This document shows positions 51,885-64,000 of a DNA stretch of 64,000 nucleotides, piece by piece (the stretch's first letter is position 1; each line of letters begins with the position of its first letter). Location: positions 856,153-920,152 of the forward strand of contig MU004231.1 of NCBI GenBank assembly GCA_010405405.1, given 5' to 3'. The notes under the pieces are model-generated. The model made no database searches. It was not told the DNA's origin and saw only the letters and a program-made list of their open reading frames with translations. The position numbers and the translations under genes are program-made. The DNA is from Microthyrium microscopicum. Taxonomy: Eukaryota.

Positions 51885-52499
51885 TGGTAACACTTTTGTC
51901 AGTTATGCGTACGGACACCGTATGCTCTGAAATCAAAGTTTGAAGCTTGAATGATCTGACCTCCTAAAGAGGAAATGAACGAGCACACAAGCTAACTAGG
52001 TGACAAAATAAATGGCGTGCCTCTCACTGAATGCGATGGCTTTCGCACAACACGCTCTGGTATCGAGTGCTTTATTTACCATCTAGGGCGTTCAAAGTCG
52101 AATATTTTATCCAATGCAATGGAATATATCCTCCCTTGATTAGAAGGGTTCGTGGGAGCCAGCGAAGTTGAAGGGAGAGTGCCAGTTATTTTGTCATGCG
52201 GTTGACAAGCATAGTTCTTCTCTAACAGGAGCGGAAGGAAGAAAGTCGTAGGCGGTGATCATGAACCTCAATCAAGCGCCATTGACGGCGGCGGTTGGGC
52301 ATAGAATGTCTCTCGCACGGCTCGAGTTTAAGCACCTTCTGACTGGAGTCTAGACTTCAAATGTGAAGATTTGTTTTTTCTCTCCTTATTTTGCAACCAT
52401 TTATATGCCAAGTTGTTCTTACCTCTGAAAAGTTGAACTCAATCTTGAACTACATCAACTTTCTAACACAAATATATACCGTAAAACCTTCCTTCAGCA

Positions 52500-52963: not shown

Positions 52964-54523
52964 CTACTGGTTGCCCCTTCTTTCCAATATCTGATGCTGT
53001 TCTAAAGCAACTATCTCCTCCTCACGGTTTATGCTAATCTCTTTAACATAGCGCTGTTGTAAGATGATTTTGAACTGTCGTAATAGACTTTGAGCAATTC
53101 CTTCGGCCGTAAGATTATCGCCTCTTCCATAAAGCGTACCTACTTGTTCCTCGTTGCCTTGCAAAATATCTCGCTTAAAACGTCCTCCTTTAGGTTCTTC
53201 CTCTGATTCATTGACACGATAGACAGCGAGACAGCGAGTCCATATCTGTCGAGACCCGGCCAGTGTCAAACACAGTGCCAACTTGCCGTTGGTACGGGCT
53301 TGCGCTCGCTTTGCTTTACCTCCGCTTTGAAAATACCTGCGATTAGTCCACCAGTCAAGAGGTAGAGTAACCGGAAAGAATTGGAATCCTTGGTTGGGTT
53401 TGAACCAGCAGTCTTTGGAACCTTGATTGCTGGTAGAACCAAAGATTTTGTTGCCAGGCTGATCGATCGCCAAGTCGCCTGGATTGAAGTGTGGCGATCT
53501 TTTAAACCAGGTTCCTCCTTGGCCAATATAACAGATGTTATATTGGTAAGCAGCAAAGTCTGTGAATGTTAATAAGTAAACGAAAGTTAGAAGAAATTGT
53601 AGAAACGTACATTGCTCACCATTGGCAGCGCAGTGCAGGTTAATCGCCTCCGCTAGATCTGCAGCACATTTCTCTACAGAGTCCATTTCGCCCCATATTG
53701 CCGTCGTTGGCGACATAGCTTGACACTTCTGACACTGTCGATGCAACCAATCTGTCTGAATTGTCCAGCATGTTTCGTAGAGAACCCATGATCCTCTGGA
53801 TTCTGGGTCTTTGAAACTTGTTTGGTACTTTTGCAACTCACAACACTCTTTGCAACGAAAGCCATGAGGAACGACATTAAGTTTGTGAGGGCTCCAGGTA
53901 TGCTTGTCGGGGTTACCGACACCAGGATCGTGTAAGCGATCAACTCCTGTCTTCCATATCTCGAGTTTCTCTTCAATTGTCTTCTTTTGATTCTCTGCTT
54001 GTGAGAAGCGGAGTTTGCCTGTTTTGAGCAGTTGTTGTCGCACGCCTGCCATGGAATCATGATTTGTACACTGTAATTCTACGCCTGGGCGAAGCGCAAG
54101 ATCATGTTCGCCCAGGCCATGTCTCCTTCTGCATGCGTCACAGCATTGAATATTCCAAGTTTTCTTTTTACCGTTGTATCCTGTAGGAACGTGGACCTGG
54201 TTGTATCCTGTAGGAACGTGGCCCTGTCCAGTGTGTTTTAGTCTATTCAGAATATGCGTTTCTCCTTCTTTATTAAAAAAGGGGCATGGCTCAGAGTCAG
54301 CTATATATAATTAGTACTGTTGATAAACCTAAAGCATAATAAACATTACCTGGCGGCGACTCTTGGGAGGGCGATGGCTCTCCCTTGGCTCGTTTAGCTA
54401 TATACAGTTAGCCAATTCCAAGACGAGATGTTAACATGGCATACTTGAACGAGACGAGGTTGGAGAAACGTCTTCTGGTTGGGTACGCTTTTTTGTAATA
54501 GAAGCTTTCTTGCCACGAGCCAT
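52964..54523 (-). CDS. Orphan nuclear protein (about 470 aa) with NLS, Cys clusters and a GIY-YIG-like nuclease motif, 4 exons
   Basis: Exons 54523-54445, 54397-54350, 54300-53611 and 53559-52964 total 1413 nt in one frame, all with GT-AG introns. N-terminus MARGKKASITKKR..STKRAK. Cys clusters CCDACRRR and CKECC..CW..CQKC. Motif GEQY-x9-YIGQGGTWFKRSPH. Confidence 0.7.
54173..54226. repeat. 27-bp tandem duplication (2 copies, 1 mismatch)
   Basis: GTTGTATCCTGTAGGAACGTGG(A/C)CCTG occurs twice. On the minus strand it encodes QGHVPTGYN-QVHVPTGYN in frame. Confidence 0.95.
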
Positions 54524-55053: not shown

Positions 55054-56093
55054 CTAAACTCTTTCTATCTGGCATTGAAGCTCCCTAATTGTTCGACTTA
55101 GATCTCGCCAGTCGCGTTGTATGTCAAGCAGTGTTTGGACAGGGATAAGATGATGAAGTCCGCCAAGTTTGACCTGGAATGGCTGGGTTTGATGAATCAA
55201 GATGAATCGTGTATTGATAGCGGTATGTGCATATCCCTGATTGTGCAAATACTGTAGTGCGGATGTGCATTGGCTAACAATAGCATCTTTGTCATTCTTG
55301 GACAGGTCATTAGGGAGGTCATGGCAAGAGACAAACTTGGAAATCAAGAACTGCCAGTCGAGGTGGCATCCCGTCTGGACGATTTCCACGAGATGAGGCT
55401 TTTGAATGTTAGCAGGAAATGCGCTAGATATCAAGTAATACATACATGATTGAGGCGCTTAAATCGTAGCCCATGACTGTGCACCTTGCCATAATGCTGT
55501 TGCTGGATGCGGATAACCTTTAGCTCAGGATCATCTATAGCTACGCATGTATATACCTGCCTGGATGGTCTATAAGCGAGGCGATGTAGTAGCCAATATT
55601 TAGGTGTGCGCAAGAACTTTGCCGGCATTGGAAGCCTTGTCAAATCAACAGTTTGCTGACCGGTTGACTGCGAGTAGAGCTTGAGAAGGGCTGATAGTCT
55701 CTCGGGGCAATAGTGAAAATACAGCTGGAACTTGCACTGGTTGAGTTCAAGCCCAACGGATACTAGAAATGGATACATTGCATTATTAAGCTTCAGCGAG
55801 CCCGAAGGACCGCGCACAATAATACCGTCGCCCGACGAGTCGGATAGAAGTAATAGGCCAGTAGATGGCTCAATTCGCAAGAGACACTGATGACTAGCAC
55901 ACGAATCTGGTAGCAAAACATCATTGCAGAGATGGCGCCCAAACCTTAGGTGTTGTCGTCCCAGAAGTTTTCCTAGTGGAATACGTAGAGTTTGGCCTTG
56001 GAGAAAATATCGATTCTCACGAATGTCAAGAACTGGTTTCGCGAAGTGGTTGAGTGGAACTAACGCGATGTAAGCGTTTTTGAGAGCGTCCAT
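55054..56093 (-). CDS. FHA domain plus truncated protein-kinase-like (pseudokinase) protein, 2 exons
   Basis: FHA motif LRFGRHLCNDVLLPDSCASHQC..LLLSDSSGDG. Intron 55399-55445 gives LNH|PHLVEI. ALQYLHNQGYAHTAINTRFILI and VKLGG show that HRD and DFG are lost. Confidence 0.75.
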
Positions 56094-56587
56094 GAGTAGA
56101 ATGTTGATGCGAAAAGCAACTAGATCTTGGTGAGCTAGATATACACTAGGAATGGCAAGGATAGGAGACACCCTCGGATGAATCATAAAGCCTTGCGCCA
56201 CCTCCGTGCCTACAGCACCCGGGCCCTTTGTGCCTGAGCCATAGTCCTGTCCCACTGGCGTGTTTAATTACTTTTAAAACGTATTGTGGTTGTCGAAAAA
56301 AGTCTAGACTGCCTTAACTCTATGAGTCCAAGTACTTATGTAACTAATACGCTAACATCTGTGTCTCATACTGGGCTAAAGTTATGCAATCAAGAGGTCT
56401 TGAAAAGGGGCTAACTACCAAGACACTGGATAATTGTCTGAATATCAAGACAAAGCAAAATTCATGATTTGAAGACCTTGTGATCCCTTGGTCGGCTACG
56501 GCGCGACAGATAAAAACACTTGGATTCGTCGGGATTCGTGACCACTGTATCCTGCCCAGCTTTCGCGACACTGTACGCTTATCCTCA

Positions 56588-57277
56588 ATGTCCGCTACAA
56601 CACTTTCTAGCGTCGAAGCACGCTTGGCGGCCCTGGCCGACCACCCACTACCCCAAAAGGCTATTGTCTTGGGAATCGCGCGCCCACGTATGAGGTCGGG
56701 TGAATACCTCATCAAAGCTGTCTATACCGAGAAACCCAAAGAAAAGGTCGAGTTTTGTATAATGAACAAGGATCTACAAGGACGAACATTGCTCGACTTT
56801 CCACGGAAAAAGAATCACTTTTTATGGGAAGAGTTGTTTGAGCGCGAACCAACCCATTCATCGGTGGAGATCTTTGAGGCATGGGGACAGATTCCGGCGT
56901 CAAACGCGAAAGACACGACACTCCACATGATTCGCTGGTTTCGATCCTGGGATGGACAAGTCAAGACTGCTCCCTCACTGGCAGTTCGTATTCCAGTAAT
57001 TGCCGACCGTATCACCGCACTGGGCTCTGGTTTACGAAAACTTGAGCTTGAGCGCGACAATGTAGTGGAAGAAGCAAGCGCAGCTCCTACTCATCACGAG
57101 CGAGTTGAAGGTCAAGAGCCTATCCAGTCGCCGGCCATGCTGCCCTGGCAAATTCAGAAACCAAGAGCCTCACACTCAAAGTCAGCAGCAGAGTCAATAT
57201 CCTCGATTGAAGAGCTAGATCCACCTACGGCCCACGCCGGTCAACCTCAAGGCTCCTACAACCATATCTTTGGGTGA
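56588..57277 (+). CDS. Orphan hypothetical protein
   Basis: About 230-aa ORF from the ATG at 56588, with a globular-looking N-terminal part and a low-complexity tail. No family recognised. Confidence 0.55.
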   Translation: MSATTLSSVEARLAALADHPLPQKAIVLGIARPRMRSGEYLIKAVYTEKPKEKVEFCIMNKDLQGRTLLDFPRKKNHFLWEELFEREPTHSSVEIFEAWGQIPASNAKDTTLHMIRWFRSWDGQVKTAPSLAVRIPVIADRITALGSGLRKLELERDNVVEEASAAPTHHERVEGQEPIQSPAMLPWQIQKPRASHSKSAAESISSIEELDPPTAHAGQPQGSYNHIFG

Positions 57278-57511
57278 GGTTTTCTGGCATGAATATTCTG
57301 GCTATACTAACTAGGCTAGGAATGAGGACGCCACTCTCGACTCCAAAACAATCCAGTTGCCGATTCCGATTCAAGCCAAAAGACCCGTCTTGGAGCTGAA
57401 GAAGAAGAGCCAAGCACATATTGTGCCGGACGTGATGGATTTGGCCTCGTTGGAATGAGGGTTACGGTACAACCGCAACAAACGCGGCTTGCCCGGTATT
57501 TGCAGCGGTTT

Positions 57512-57781
57512 CTAACCTGAAACTTGGGCATCTGTACCTTGATCTTTTTGTTCCTTCAATAGTCTTTCTTCTAGTATTTCTAGCTCTTTTAATTTCTTGA
57601 GGACACTGTCGTCTGCTTGCATGTGCTTATAGAGGGATTGGAAGGATTCGTTCTCTGGGCGGATAATATGGGCAAGGCTGAGAAATGCGTCCTTGATTTT
57701 CTCATTCTCGACTACGAGGATCTTATTCTCGATTTGGAGGAGTTGGTAGTCGTTGGATAGCTCGCGTGTTTTGTCGCTCAT
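57512..57781 (-). CDS. Small coiled-coil protein
   Basis: 89-aa ATG-initiated ORF with heptad-like E/K/L-rich composition. Confidence 0.45.
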   Translation of the reverse strand: MSDKTRELSNDYQLLQIENKILVVENEKIKDAFLSLAHIIRPENESFQSLYKHMQADDSVLKKLKELEILEERLLKEQKDQGTDAQVSG

Positions 57782-58191
57782 GGATTGGATGATTTTTCGA
57801 TAAGCTTGGTGATCACGGACGAGCTCGTCTCTAGTTAATTGAGCCGTCTTGAGAAATTTAGCAATCTAGTCTTGATGTAGGCACGTACATTTTACCTCTA
57901 CCTGGACATCTGTTGCAGTCGACTCCATTGCTGATGCTGCTTATTGTAAAGGGTTGAGATGGGGAATCTTGAGTTAAGCAAAATCTTAATGAAATCAGAT
58001 AAACAAGTTTTGGGTCCGTCGTTTTTGTCATGTCGTGTGCGGTTGATGAGGCAGCGGATACCTAACGCAAGGTTCAATGTTGTCAATGTCGCACAAACAA
58101 CTCTTGGGCCACATGCAGCATACTTGTTGAAGCCTGAACCAATATTACTTTCTCTACTAGTATTACTCTCTGCAACTTCCAAGCCTCCATA

Positions 58192-60210
58192 ATGGCCTTT
58201 CCAGCCATGAGAGTATTGGACCCAATAATCAAAGACATTGGGCACTACTTTGAAGGGGATGTCATGTCTATCGCTCGGCACTCTCCATTTGCTGGTCGGG
58301 CCTTTGAGTCGGCACTAGCAGACGGCTTTCTTACCTGCTCGTCTTCGTTCAGCCCGGAAGACAGCTTCGCCACCCGGTTTTTCAAATTGGAACAACAAGA
58401 ACAGTACAGGGTTGTTCTGTTTGACGTCAAGAGCAAGATCCATCGCCAAGCAGGATATCAAACATACAGCACTACAGAACGACAGCGACATAACATGGCC
58501 TTTTTTATTGGCATCTGTGCATCAGACACATCCATGGTTGAACTCATTCCCAACCTTGATCAAGATCCTAGCAAAACGAGCGAGACTACTAATAGTGGCG
58601 TTGGCGTTAATACAACGCGCGCTTTGCCATTTCCATTCTACACATATGGCTTTGATCCGTGTAGCGCCCCGTTTCGAATGTACCTGTCACAGCTGCCAGA
58701 GGCTCTCAACCGCGTCCATCGCTGTGCCATACATGGGGAGCCGTATATCAATCCTCATACTGGTGTTGAATTTGATTGGACACCAATAGTGGTCAATCAC
58801 ATTGACCACTTACGACCAAGCGATCAAACCCAAAACTATTCTTCATTTCGAGCGATTCGAGACATGTTCTATCATGTCGAGACAGCACGCTTTCTGGGTT
58901 CGGGAATAGAAATGGACTTTGTGCAGCTACAGCCACGGCTTGCGGACTTTAAATTCATTGTCGCCGACCGGCAATACTTTGTACAGCACAAGATTGATGG
59001 ATGGACCCGCGGAGAAGACAATAACCTACACCGAGTGGCTATTGCAAGAAACAAGGCAGGAGCGCCTAAAAAGTACTTTACGGTGATTGAAAGGTGTGTA
59101 GGCGCTTTTAAGGAACGTACAGCAGTTGTTAATGTATAAAGCAGATTTGATTTTTTCATGTACCAATTCGAATTCAACTTCCATGGGAGAATAGTCAAGA
59201 AGGCCCTCTTTATTCCGGAATACCAGATCCCTAGAGAATTCTACACAACTAGCGAAATGTACGCCAACTTTGATCGCCCCGAGTTCCAGTCGTACCGCTT
59301 TGACCTGGATGAAGAAGGTGGCTGGGTTTCAAAAGTCGTCAACATTATCAAGGCGACTCCACGCCCACGACGTTCAGAAGCAGCATTGCAAACGCTCGGT
59401 ACCTTTAACGAATCGAGCATCAACCCCCCAGAGGAAGAAAAGACTATGTCGATTCCATCAGTTTCTATTCTGAACAAAATGCATCAAAAGTGCCTTTGTC
59501 AATTATGGACCCGTCTGATGACTGTTTTTGCTATTCGCAAGTCCGGGCTATTGCTCATCCAGGCTTCTGAGCATCCAGTTGCTGATCTAGCTTATGCTCG
59601 CTATAAGTGGACCGAGAGAGAGCAGCATAGCTTTCTAGAGCACGGTATTCCACCAAGAACTATACATCGAATGCCTCCAAAGACTCCACTCGTAGCAGTG
59701 TTGTATTACTGGAGGAAGGCTGCAATCGACCACCAAGGCCCGAACTTATCAGTCAGCACATTTCGAAGATGGGATAACAAATTTGCCAAACTCATCATTG
59801 TTGATTTTTGGAGTGGCGATCAGCCAGTGGAAAGTGTCAGCCTCCCGTATCTTCTTATTCCTTCGGATGATGTCAGGCCTACTGAAGAGCAACGAGCACG
59901 ATACTTTCAAAATTTAGACATGCGGGATAATCGTACACTGGTAGCTGTCTTGTGCTATCTACTAGGATGCGGAGTATCACTGACAAGCTATCGCGTTGCT
60001 GTATTAGGGCCCCAATCATACGATGGCCTTGATCGCGCTTGGTCCTCAATGATTAAGATATTAGACAAGTTTATAAGCGACGAGTATGTACATCACCCAC
60101 ATGGGAACGAGCATTGGGCAGTACGGTATCGCACGACTCTTCAAGCGCTGAATCAAGAGTTGGCTAGAGACCTTTACCAGTTTCGTTCCCACGATCCCAG
60201 CTCTATATAA
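58192..60210 (+). CDS. Orphan protein (about 655 aa) with tandem PD-(D/E)XK nuclease-like motifs, paralogue A, 2 exons
   Basis: Intron 59094-59144 joins the 315-aa and 350-aa ORFs in frame (..IER|FDFFMY..). Motifs IGHYFEG..ADGFL..LFDVKS and QPRLADF..VQHK. Confidence 0.75.
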
Positions 60211-60337
60211 ATTAACAGCGTTGGTTTCCGCAACGCGGGTTGGAGTATTGCGCGCAGTCAAGGAACATGTATTGGATATAGGTAAATAATCAAATGTTTT
60301 GTGATCTTCTGTTCATTGACTTGTCTTCCCCATCTCT

Positions 60338-63165
60338 CTACTTCAATGTCTCTGGCCATTTCTTTTCATATTCCGCCAATACTTTTCCATACTCAACTCG
60401 CTCTTTGTCAGAGAGGATTCGAGCAAATTCCATGGTCTTTTCTACTAGCTTCTTTTGGTCTTGGCTAGCTTGGGTTTCATTCTTGCGAATTTGCCCACCG
60501 AAAGACACGATATTGAGAACGCAAGCACTAAGGAGTTCCGTCCATTCAATAGTTTCACGCTTTTCGTGACTTTTCAAAATTGATGAAATCGTCTTCACGC
60601 TATCCGTATTATCGGATACGCGCGGTTTCTCAAATCGAAAATGCCTCGGTATCAGCATATTCACAAAGTCATTATTGTGCACACCTGAGAACAAGCCTTG
60701 CACTGTTTCCTCTAGTAGGCTGTCCAATGAGAAACTTTCTGGGTGCTTAAGACCAGTGGTTGGATCTCTTTTGTCTACTCTGTGTTAGAAACTGCTTTTT
60801 AGATAGAGAAAGGTGTACTTGCAGTCAATCTTCATGCAAATCATTGCAATATCTTGATATTGTTCTAGGACTTGTTGATCGTCGACAATACCAGGCAAGC
60901 GCCGAAGTCCTGCACACACCCCATACCAGCGCAACTCGTAAACCCCAGGTACTCCCGGGATGGGAGAGTCTGGTTTGAAAGCACACCGTATAGGAGCCTT
61001 AAGCTTATCAACAGGATCAGGATCGTTTGGCTGATGACTCTTATCGAGATAGTTCTTAGGAGGACCTTTGGGTTTCTTTTCGGCTAGCGTCAATGCATCA
61101 ACTGATGGCGCTTCATCTAAAGTCTTATTAGTATTGTGGTCATTTACTAGCAGGTTTGATTACTCGAGTCATAGAGCTAATAGAGAATAGACGAGCGGTT
61201 ACTATACCTTTTGATATGCGAGTTGGGCTCGCATCATTGTCGCTTGAACCTATAGGTACGAGAGGTGGACTTGAATGTTGAACGCCTTTATCCACCTTTG
61301 TATCTTCCTTATCCTGTGCTGGTTCAGCCTCCGTGGAGATTTCAATGTGGTCTTTCAGCGACTTTTGGAATAACGTATTAAAGTCTTGGTCATATTCCTC
61401 GTCGAGTTGGATCAATTGTTGGGAACGTTCAAGGAGATATGTCCCATTGGCACAGGCGCGAAACAAGTTCTTCCAGATCGACTCCAGTGGATGGTGCCAT
61501 TGCGTTTTCAGTGTAGTGCGGACTTGAGTAGGCACTAAGGTTTCCAGTGAGAGCGTTCTCGGCCGATTCTTGTTTCGTGTGCCTGCGTGGATTCCGAGGT
61601 GTGAATATGAGTAAGACCGAGTCCCCCATGGCTTTGCTGTACCATTGAACGGCTCAACAAGCTCTGAAGGAAGACAGCAGTTGTCTTTGACATTGAAGGC
61701 TTCTGGCGAGGTGTACTTGTTGGCGGGAAATGAGAGGATGAAGAATCTATTATTCTCAAGTCTATATTTCCAAGACGTGAACTCGTTCGTATCTCGGCCG
61801 TTGTAGTACTCCACAAGCCAGAGGGCAAGATGTTTGTCTTCCGCAGCATCCCAGGGGTCGTAGGGGCTTGTCTGGCGAATAAGGTAGTCTTGCCGTTGTG
61901 GCAAAGTCCATTCCTTGAATGTAATGGAGTAGTTGCCATCGGGGTTTTCGGCAGGAAGATCTTGCACAAATCCCGTTGCATAATCGCAGCAAATGTTGTT
62001 CAGCGCTTTGACGTGTTGCCTCTTCATCAAGTCCACAGAGTCTGGCGCTGATGATTCCTCCACGAATAACTCGGGCTCTTGGGCCTCCACGTCATCATCA
62101 ACTGGATCGATGTGTTTGATTTTTGGTGGTGCCTTCTTGAAAACATTCGCATAAAGCCATTTGAAAAGCCTGTGGTAGTTGGGTTCTTGGTTGGGGCCAT
62201 CGAAGTCTTTCTTGAACGTGAAATATTGAGGTATGTTGTCCGGATCACGAAAGCTCGCAGCGATGTTCTTGTCGTCATGCTCCCAAATGAGCACAGTATG
62301 CATTGCAGAGGGTCGAGACTGCCATTCACGTAGCCACTGGTTCAAGGTCTTGTGTTCAATTGTTATGCCCCCAATGGTGAAATCGTAGGGGCGTGGAGAG
62401 TAACTAGAAAAGCGAGCTTCAATGCCGGCCCTTTTAGCCGCAGAAAAGATTTTCTGAATGTACTTGTAGGATTGCTCATGGTTACCTTGCGGCATCAAAG
62501 CTTGCTTGGTTGTCTCATAATCCCAGTTGGGCTGTACGATTCTGCGCTTGATTGTAAAGCCGCTTGGGTAGACTATGTCGGTTTCTGCAGGTCTCGTAAG
62601 CTCTAGAAAGAATTCTACGCCTTTGTCAAGGCTAGGTATGAAAAAAGGCCAGAATTCCGGCAAGATGCTATATGATGGAGATTTGCGACTGCGAAAATGC
62701 CTGTAGACCTGCGCTGGTATTATTCCAAAGCATCCTGGGTGGGTAATGCTTTGAAACAATACGAATAAAGGATTTTGGTGAGGAAGCAGAGTAGGGCCGC
62801 TGTGGGCAGGACTTATGCAGTAGGTCTTGCAATCAATTCCCAGAGCTCTGAATTGGTGACTGTCCTGATTATTGATCAAATTGTGTCCTGCTTGAAATGC
62901 TTCATGGACATCTATGTGCTTCTTTCCCCCAAAGTGCGGCGATAGCTCTATGGTCGAGAAGACTAGGTCAATCTTGCTTCCTTCATACCCTAAATAGTAG
63001 TTAGACTAGTATTCTTCATAATCAAGATATAGTCTGCATACCGTGAATTATGAATCCTTTTTCAGGGCAAAAGATGGACTGGAATAATCCTTCAAAAAGG
63101 TACCCAATATTTGTTGCATGGGGGCCTCCTATCTTGAGCTCTTTGTTGGGACCTTTGGGAGGCAT
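60338..63165 (-). CDS. Orphan protein (about 878 aa) with tandem PD-(D/E)XK nuclease-like motifs, paralogue B, 4 exons
   Basis: Exons 63165-63042, 62989-61208, 61116-60823 and 60774-60338 total 2637 nt in frame. Motifs IGYLFEG..KIDLVF..GIDCKT and SPRPYDF..IEHK. Confidence 0.7.
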
Positions 63166-63451
63166 GACTGACTCTTGATGGACGTGAATGTCGGCAACAA
63201 TAGTTGGTATGATGAAATGAAACCTCTATCTGAGAAGCTAGGAGGATAGGCGCTTATACGCTACATAAAGTTGCCTCAACGACTTAATGCGGTGTCTCGT
63301 TGCACATGAACAATTATGGATATTATAAAGTTTGCCCCAACATTCTAGATTGATATCACATAGTATAATCTAGGTATACGAAAAGAATTGACACTAATGT
63401 TCAAGGTTCATCTGGATTGATTAGCTAGGCAAATAGCAAACTTGTGGTGTA

Positions 63452-63949
63452 CTACCCATCACGACGGTCAGCCTCGGAATCAGTTGGACCGTGTCGTAAC
63501 CAGTCCAAGACCTGGGTCTGATTGCTAATGTTGCCACGACGGTTGAGTAATAGACTAGCCCGGTAAAGATCTACATCATGTAGTATATCCTTTTCTTGCT
63601 TGTATTGAGCAGTGTCAAACTCAGCCTGAGTCTTGTGCGTCGTACCGATACAGCGATTGCGAGTGTCCCGAGTCATATCCAGGACCTGTTGTCGGAAAGA
63701 ATTCTCCACCTTTTCGTTGAATCGTAGCTCGGGAATGACAAGCATTGCGACTGAGTAGGCGTCGTCCCCTAGCAAGAGATTGATCAGACGAGAATTGAAT
63801 TCCTTGGCGACTTGTGGATCCGTCTCAAACAACGCCCAAACGTTTTCAGCCAAGAACTGAACTTTGGCCGCCCAGTCTTGACAATCGGGTGTTTGGTCAA
63901 GGTCATTGACAATGATTCGTAATTTGGAAAGCAGGGTTGAAGCGCTCAT
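63452..63949 (-). CDS. Orphan alpha-helical hypothetical protein
   Basis: 165-aa ATG-initiated ORF with protein-like composition. No family recognised. Confidence 0.5.
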   Translation of the reverse strand: MSASTLLSKLRIIVNDLDQTPDCQDWAAKVQFLAENVWALFETDPQVAKEFNSRLINLLLGDDAYSVAMLVIPELRFNEKVENSFRQQVLDMTRDTRNRCIGTTHKTQAEFDTAQYKQEKDILHDVDLYRASLLLNRRGNISNQTQVLDWLRHGPTDSEADRRDG

Positions 63950-64000
63950 GATGCAAATGGGGAGCTAAACTATGAGGGTGGAGCCAAAGACTTTGGCTGT

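Follow-up and report, generated by a model that had tools for sequence, protein, structure and literature searches.

A triple-domain PD-(D/E)XK-fold protein and its conserved neighbours in an accessory island of Microthyrium microscopicum: a candidate fungal conflict nuclease

Two convergent genes in the genome of Microthyrium microscopicum raise the question of what nuclease-like proteins are doing in a region of lineage-specific DNA, and which of the genes around them they work with. Within the window (the whole 64,000-nucleotide stretch that was analysed, G000:C2:856153-920152), gene A lies on the plus strand (58192-60210; 655 residues, BT63DRAFT_436691) and is predicted to encode a triple PD-(D/E)XK-fold protein, and gene B lies on the minus strand (63165-60338; 878 residues, BT63DRAFT_138382) and appears to encode a distant paralogue of it. 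Our comparisons, which are largely of sequences, indicate that A represents a real and apparently undescribed variant of PD-(D/E)XK enzyme, putatively a conflict nuclease, in a new gene module, and no description of its family was found in the literature searched, which was partial in coverage and did not include supplements.

The reading frames of both genes are intact. Gene A consists of exons 58192-59093 and 59145-60210 around an intron at 59094-59144, and gene B of exons 63165-63042, 62989-61208, 61116-60823 and 60774-60338, separated by introns 63041-62990, 61207-61117 and 60822-60775. All four introns are bridged by spliced contigs and have GT-AG or GC-AG ends, the last one being GC-AG; the contigs come from one public run, possibly of the same isolate, which we take by guess to be RNA, no run being recorded as such. 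An 881-residue model of B with a GT donor at intron 3 was rejected, the contigs and the NCBI model both giving the GC-AG intron. Gene A is single-copy in the genome.

The predicted model of A (predicted local distance difference test, pLDDT, 79; predicted template modelling score 0.80) contains three alpha/beta domains, all encoded on the plus strand. Domain 1 (58240-58734, residues 17-181) carries the motif E21, D44 and D78-x-K80, and domain 2 (58819-59364, spanning the intron, about residues 210-374) carries D252 and Q265-x-K267; both are predicted to be active. The motif residues sit on the expected helix and strands of the model and are intact in 90 of 95 alignment rows covering domain 1 and in 94 of 95 for domain 2. 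Domain 3 (59455-60174, residues 405-644) keeps D448, which is found in 75 of 82 rows, and is predicted to be dead and structural: its third strand has tyrosine or phenylalanine at position 489 and arginine, glutamine or lysine at 491, and the alignment columns contain no acidic partner, no fixed lysine and no (D/E/Q)xK. An earlier note, made from the letters of this DNA, had proposed tandem restriction-endonuclease-like domains with collinear similarity in three blocks and conserved catalytic residues; the domain fold holds for the predicted A, the number of domains becomes three, and the signature persists in blocks 1 and 2 and is missing from block 3.

Structure searches made separately with the three domains of A place nucleases of the PD-(D/E)XK fold at the top of each list. 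Domain 1 matches Hje (1ob8; Z 5.7, root-mean-square deviation (rmsd) 3.3, 106 residues aligned), domain 2 matches RecU (1y1o; Z 6.7, rmsd 3.4, 131 aligned), and domain 3 matches DREN of the SPARDA system (9qcc; Z 8.3, rmsd 3.8, 139 aligned) and I-Ssp6803I (2ost; Z 7.0-7.1, rmsd 3.6, 125 aligned), the latter being also the top PDB row in Foldseek. With middling Z scores, all three predicted domains align to members of the superfamily, whose core is a helix and a mixed beta-sheet in the order alpha-beta-beta-beta-alpha-beta, and domains 1 and 2 have its D...(D/E/Q)xK motif, on the second and third strands, as well. The only structure matches of A at E<=0.001 are three giant-virus proteins (E, the expectation value, 2.1e-6 to 3.1e-4). 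Sequence searches of Pfam, PHROGs and the PDB returned no family for A or B, and of 85 pattern matches in viral contigs none was confirmed.

Relatives of A are numerous among fungi. A search with exon 1 recovered 16 other proteins (17 with A) from Dothideomycetes and lichen fungi, including Aureobasidium, Bipolaris, Friedmanniomyces and Bacidia, and a further look-up added Hortaea, Neophaeotheca and Zasmidium. At E<=0.001 a profile of the family reached 473 clusters (50% identity), of which the best 150 were listed; many of these are single exons, so that the number of genes is lower. Pairwise identities are 31-63%. As judged from these sequences, the family is ascomycete, large, unnamed and composed of highly diversified paralogues, and the proposal of a multi-domain PD-(D/E)XK family that has retained its catalytic residues is borne out by the predicted model, the structure matches and the motif counts.

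Is B a member of the same family? Direct comparison gives no answer in its favour: in a pairwise alignment with shuffles, the test suggested by the earlier note, the Smith-Waterman score of 47 was equalled by 66 of 500 shuffles, and the best BLASTP E was 0.34. The peptide blocks quoted there are all present, and collinear, in A and B. Family profiles give a different result. A 17-row alignment of A homologues matches B across 269 collinear columns in hhalign (E 8.4e-4), and against the hidden Markov model (HMM) built from it none of 1000 full shuffles and one of 1000 local shuffles score as high as B; a 158-row family HMM gives 7.0 bits, a score reached by none of 1000 shuffles. With per-domain profiles, blocks 2 and 3 of B each exceed 100 of 100 shuffles, whereas block 1 alone is not significant, its score being equalled by 8 of 100.

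A metagenome locus, L038, provides a bridge. It contains an A homologue, a second and divergent gene with the three blocks, and genes C and D described below, as in the window. The second gene has an E of 2.6e-16 against the family, its score against B exceeds those of all 300 shuffles, and it has a predicted intron with the codon and phase of B intron 1, a position at which A has no intron. A tree grouped B with this paralogue (97/97), with about six changes per column on the branches, and we discounted it as evidence. That B might be no true paralogue, or a decaying passenger whose blocks arose by chance, is a reading suggested by the failed pairwise alignment, by the insignificance of block 1, by the extreme branch length and by a word-based search in which no full-length relative of B was found; we regard it as very improbable, given profile scores above 1000 shuffles, blocks 2 and 3 matching in order, the L038 gene and a reading frame intact over four exons. 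The ancient paralogy put forward in the earlier note is therefore supported, because family profiles and the L038 bridge connect the two genes; on these sequences the homology holds at the level of profiles and not in direct pairwise alignment.

The catalytic positions of B follow those of A. By sequence, its domain 1 has E25, D49 and D94-x-K96, and its domain 2 has D244 and E253-x-K255, residues that align in three comparisons, so that the motif is present in both. The register D94-x-K96, as first proposed, receives the highest score (8.2) when B is scanned with the profile without gaps; the alternative given by MAFFT, D68-x-H70, scores 1.2 and was rejected. In the third block N394 occupies the aspartate position, and the third domain looks catalytically dead in both A and B. 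B also has a tail of about 290 residues that is absent from A. An Atlas model of B (pLDDT 0.40) gives PD-(D/E)XK clusters at residues 14-179 and 209-324, with PDDEXK_5, NOV_C and Hjc among the rows, and two Nucleocytoviricota clusters align with residues 1-328; all of these lie below the bar of the Atlas.

Two further genes, which the earlier note had not picked up, accompany A: C lies immediately upstream of B, and D comes next. Gene C (63408-63949, minus strand; 165 residues, no Pfam family, with an intron at 63455-63412 near its 3' end) has homologues in the N-terminal regions of four open reading frames (ORFs) of the A family, P0003-P0006 (BLASTP to P0003, E 6e-20), and in these four records the C-nuclease fusion is an uninterrupted ORF. 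No stand-alone C relative of 90-289 residues was found among 19 candidates. A splice fusion of C to B was considered and rejected, since no in-frame junction was seen by eye and contigs show separate small introns, that of C being bridged like those of A and B. A predicted complex of A and C, made without alignments, scored 0.00, which we count neither for nor against binding. Gene D reaches the window only with its 3' end (63973-64000, minus strand; in full G000:C2:920125-921180). With the HMM of domain 3, the scores of six of seven D sequences are reached by only 0-2 of 300 shuffles, and that of the seventh by 9 of 300, an excess not seen with the HMMs of domains 1 and 2; a separate hhalign comparison of D with domain 3 gave E 0.001. 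As far as these profiles can tell, D is probably a stand-alone, dead homologue of domain 3.

The association of these genes was followed in 21 metagenome loci with A homologues, many of them on short contigs. C of the window matches eight of the 21 loci and D nine, and one or the other is present in 12, as judged with profiles partly built from the same loci, or in nine of 17 distinct loci; seven of the eight loci without C or D are contigs of less than 5.5 kb. Of 82 control ORFs taken from the core DNA flanking the island, none matches the 21 loci, compared with 9 of 106 island ORFs. A homologues linked to C or D are only 31-58% identical and are spread over the tree, which argues that the linkage is old. 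Ten of the 21 loci also have an FHA gene, and seven have a further conserved gene, methyltransferase-like by eye. In the window, a weak counterpart of the FHA gene is a spliced FHA-like gene with a degenerate kinase (55054-56267, minus strand; HTA for HRD; Pkinase E 0.0017, below the cut-off), whose introns are likewise bridged by contigs. By eye, the A-family protein P0036 has an FHA-like N-terminus fused to it.

The same loci bear on the possibility that A and B are dedicated partners, either as a heterodimer or as a killer with its resistance factor. The two are convergent neighbours, and the B-like gene of L038, with the position and phase of B intron 1, lies beside an A homologue. A separate B-like gene, however, adjoins an A homologue in only one of the 21 loci, a count of low sensitivity given the short contigs and given the mere 7 bits with which B itself matches the family, so that others could escape; and two domains of B retain catalytic motifs, unlike what a dead antidote would show. 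The pairing, which had been suggested on first reading of the sequence, thus finds no support as it was put, and we consider it quite improbable. C and D are better candidates for partners than B, since they are found in eight and nine of the 21 loci and the B-like gene in one.

All of these genes lie in an island of about 64 kb, from window position 52003 to approximately G000:C2:972000, of which the window holds the left part. Its borders are our judgement of where core genes resume. In an ORF survey and Pfam scans, the island genes are mostly without Pfam families and have internal paralogues, and core genes resume on both sides. Island-like fragments of 40-310 bp, 72-98% identical, cluster in mixed orientation at three unlinked sites: C13:501-505 kb (501000-504700; nine matches, with fold-back hairpins), C9:166-170 kb (165900-169500; ten matches) and C6:352-353 kb (351900-353200; eight matches, with nested inverted-repeat elements). 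The fragments derive from across the island, and several directly adjoin one another; B and D are represented, fragments of A were not found, and contigs of B from the run mentioned above continue into the C13 and C9 copies. Control DNA of 85 kb gave no matches at these sites, and a 16-kb core stretch gave one weak match elsewhere. The patchworks suggest that island DNA was once free in the nucleus.

Such free DNA would fit a reading in which the nuclease is part of the island's own machinery of movement, cutting target or donor DNA or resolving branched intermediates in the manner of Hjc and RecU, with a mover enzyme that has escaped recognition. Junction resolvases and a homing endonuclease do head the structure lists, and the tandem PD-(D/E)XK-like giant-virus proteins are the best viral structure matches. 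The likeness to resolvases is, however, common to the whole superfamily, the only sign of a recombinase or transposase found in the island is a nested long terminal repeat (LTR) retrotransposon, and self-BLAST found no terminal repeats; we hold a role in movement to be unlikely, though worth bearing in mind.

Our preferred reading, to which we give a probability of roughly 0.45, is instead that A belongs to a selfish, break-making nuclease module in which C and D act as scaffold or brake. A would be a single-chain DNase, its domains 1 and 2 forming two metal-dependent PD-(D/E)XK sites that cut both strands, and its domain 3 a dead structural copy; a double-strand cut is proposed because two conserved catalytic sites lie in one chain. 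I-Ssp6803I and DREN, the best structural matches of A and of the same PD-(D/E)XK core, are described as tetramers in which two domains cut and two are structural (PMC3384342; 10.1101/2025.04.08.647717). By analogy of architecture, A with its two live domains and one dead domain might form together with D a four-domain assembly, two domains cutting and two supporting. The module of A, C and D, often with the FHA gene, would serve the selfish accessory island by inflicting double-strand breaks on DNA or nuclei without it, while in carriers C and D would assemble or restrain the nuclease. B would be a second nuclease built like A, old and optional, probably with another target. A self-contained conflict module is suggested by the long-lived linkage, by the fusion with C and by the setting in an accessory island; the DNase activity, any contact of A with D or with C, the selfish role and the mobility are inferred.

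Several observations weigh against this reading. The structural similarities of A are middling (Z 5.7-8.3), with no PDB match at E 0.001 in Foldseek, and a single-sequence AlphaFold model of B (pLDDT 33.6) returned only helices in its fold search and was set aside. D matches domain 3 along a stretch of about 50 residues, and three whole-protein comparisons gave weak results (E 0.077, 0.15 and 0.035). The metagenome loci do not amount to 21 independent cases, as 11 of the 21 share three contig-name prefixes between them and there are four pairs that seem to be duplicates, and one locus, L021, is without C, D and FHA across 22 kb. The FHA gene of the window matches an HMM of the FHA neighbours at only E 0.027 and is a weak counterpart. 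Self-BLAST in the one strain revealed no terminal repeats of the island, and no DUF3435 captain was found near it, the only matches in the genome (C2:1152410-1153116) being below the cut-off and about 180 kb beyond the island; with A single-copy, and with neither captain nor terminal repeats found, mobility would be no more than a supposition.

Comparison with known systems places A near several of them and within none. I-Ssp6803I and DREN are bacterial single-domain units, whereas A fuses three domains and has no sequence-level match in Pfam or among PDB sequences; A is, moreover, encoded by a nuclear gene of its own, interrupted by a spliceosomal intron, and has no Argonaute or APAZ partner. 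A and B, being free-standing and having spliceosomal introns, also differ from intron- or intein-encoded homing endonucleases. The Spok spore killers of Podospora and other ascomycetes are, like A, fungal PD-(D/E)XK proteins and offer a precedent for a selfish killer of this fold; they belong to selfish blocks, their catalytic lysine is needed for killing, and their chain joins a single nuclease domain to a cysteine cluster and to a kinase domain that confers resistance (PMC6660238). A has three nuclease-fold domains and, by Pfam, no kinase, the kinase-like gene nearby being separate and degenerate. Crinkler (CR) effectors with a restriction endonuclease (REase) domain are eukaryotic toxins of this fold linked to transposons, with an N-terminal header and an REase coupled to an NTPase or kinase (PMC5289972, citing Zhang et al. 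2016). The first nuclease domain of A, by comparison, starts at about residue 17, and no header, NTPase or kinase was detected. The giant-virus tandem proteins (A0A1V0SIJ8 of Klosneuvirus, A0A076FH51 of Aureococcus anophagefferens virus and A0A3G5A8P9 of Hyperionvirus), which are uncharacterised, match A in structure at E<=0.001 and with only 10-13% identity.

The closeness of domain 3 to DREN, which belongs to a defence system, invites a further interpretation, namely that A is a host nuclease of defence or non-self recognition, triggered by invading DNA or by fusion with an incompatible strain, C and D serving as its sensor or inhibitor. Intact genes, spliced in the single run used, and highly diversified paralogues would agree with this. 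Neither an NLR, HET or Argonaute protein nor an NTPase sensor was found among the neighbours scanned, however, and a place in an accessory island would suit a selfish role just as well; we judge host defence to be distinctly unlikely.

The island resembles a Starship in being a large block of lineage-specific genes among core genes, and differs in that no DUF3435 captain (PMC9156397) was found near it, although a divergent or lost one is possible. An actual Starship about 130-180 kb beyond the island shares with it no DNA, gene families or enriched words; a match of the D profile there (E 0.021) covers 47 low-complexity residues and was dismissed. One may speculate, though we think it unlikely on present evidence, that there is an undescribed class of large selfish islands, other than Starships, driven or moved by a single-chain nuclease resembling I-Ssp6803I with a dead paralogue that completes or restrains it, possibly related to the tandem nucleases of giant viruses; shredded copies of such islands, caught at a few chromosomal sites as the patchworks with their fold-back hairpins, could then provide a small-RNA memory against them.

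Further features of the island are recorded here for completeness. A 204-bp dispersed repeat at its left edge (52003-52205), with at least 35 matches at 75-83% identity, is similar to a miniature inverted-repeat transposable element. The nested LTR retrotransposon (L011:4699-9999, L012:1-2639) has a chromodomain and is flanked by 140-bp identical repeats. Beside A are two spliced genes without Pfam families, one at 56468-57520 (plus strand), chromo-shadow-like by eye, and one at 57512-58032 (minus strand), coiled-coil-like. A 448-residue cysteine-rich ORF without a Pfam family (52964-54310, minus strand) has a 308-bp relative within the C9 patchwork. The island includes a run of 125 N bases at about G000:C2 936817-936942, and a candidate for an island-wide motif turned out to be one tandem repeat. 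Genes with an apparent single membrane segment and a helical tail occur in the island (L009:5529-6572, L010:3730-4887, L010:6211-7260), and similar apparent membrane genes lie beside A homologues elsewhere (L026:9737-10708, L030:5860-6915, L031:9383-10789, L040:2916-4013); comparison of the two sets revealed no link in sequence. The island ORFs L010:1759-3087 and L014:1902-3656 match L021:338-1009 (E 6e-5 and 7e-6), a gene 9 kb from the A homologue of that locus, and so make up another family shared by the island and an A-family locus.

Among the wider family, a JmjC-like ORF seen by eye near an A homologue (L033:12715-14607) has no Pfam match, and the Aureobasidium model P0028, also without one, fuses to A an N-terminal stretch like that ORF. 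In the A-family loci L034/L036 and L041, TpA/ApT is raised (1.3-2.2) and frames are broken, as after repeat-induced point mutation; going by these marks in the sequence, the module may once have been repeated in those genomes.

To our knowledge, few eukaryotic PD-(D/E)XK conflict nucleases are known, those compared here being Spok and the Crinkler REases. A large fungal family without a Pfam match, with two domains predicted live and one dead and with conserved partners, makes toxin, antidote and target directly testable in yeast, and a single-chain nuclease with a double site could serve as a practical cutter of long DNA sites. If it is true that the nuclease drives or moves islands, it would add a mechanism by which fungi gain and retain accessory DNA.

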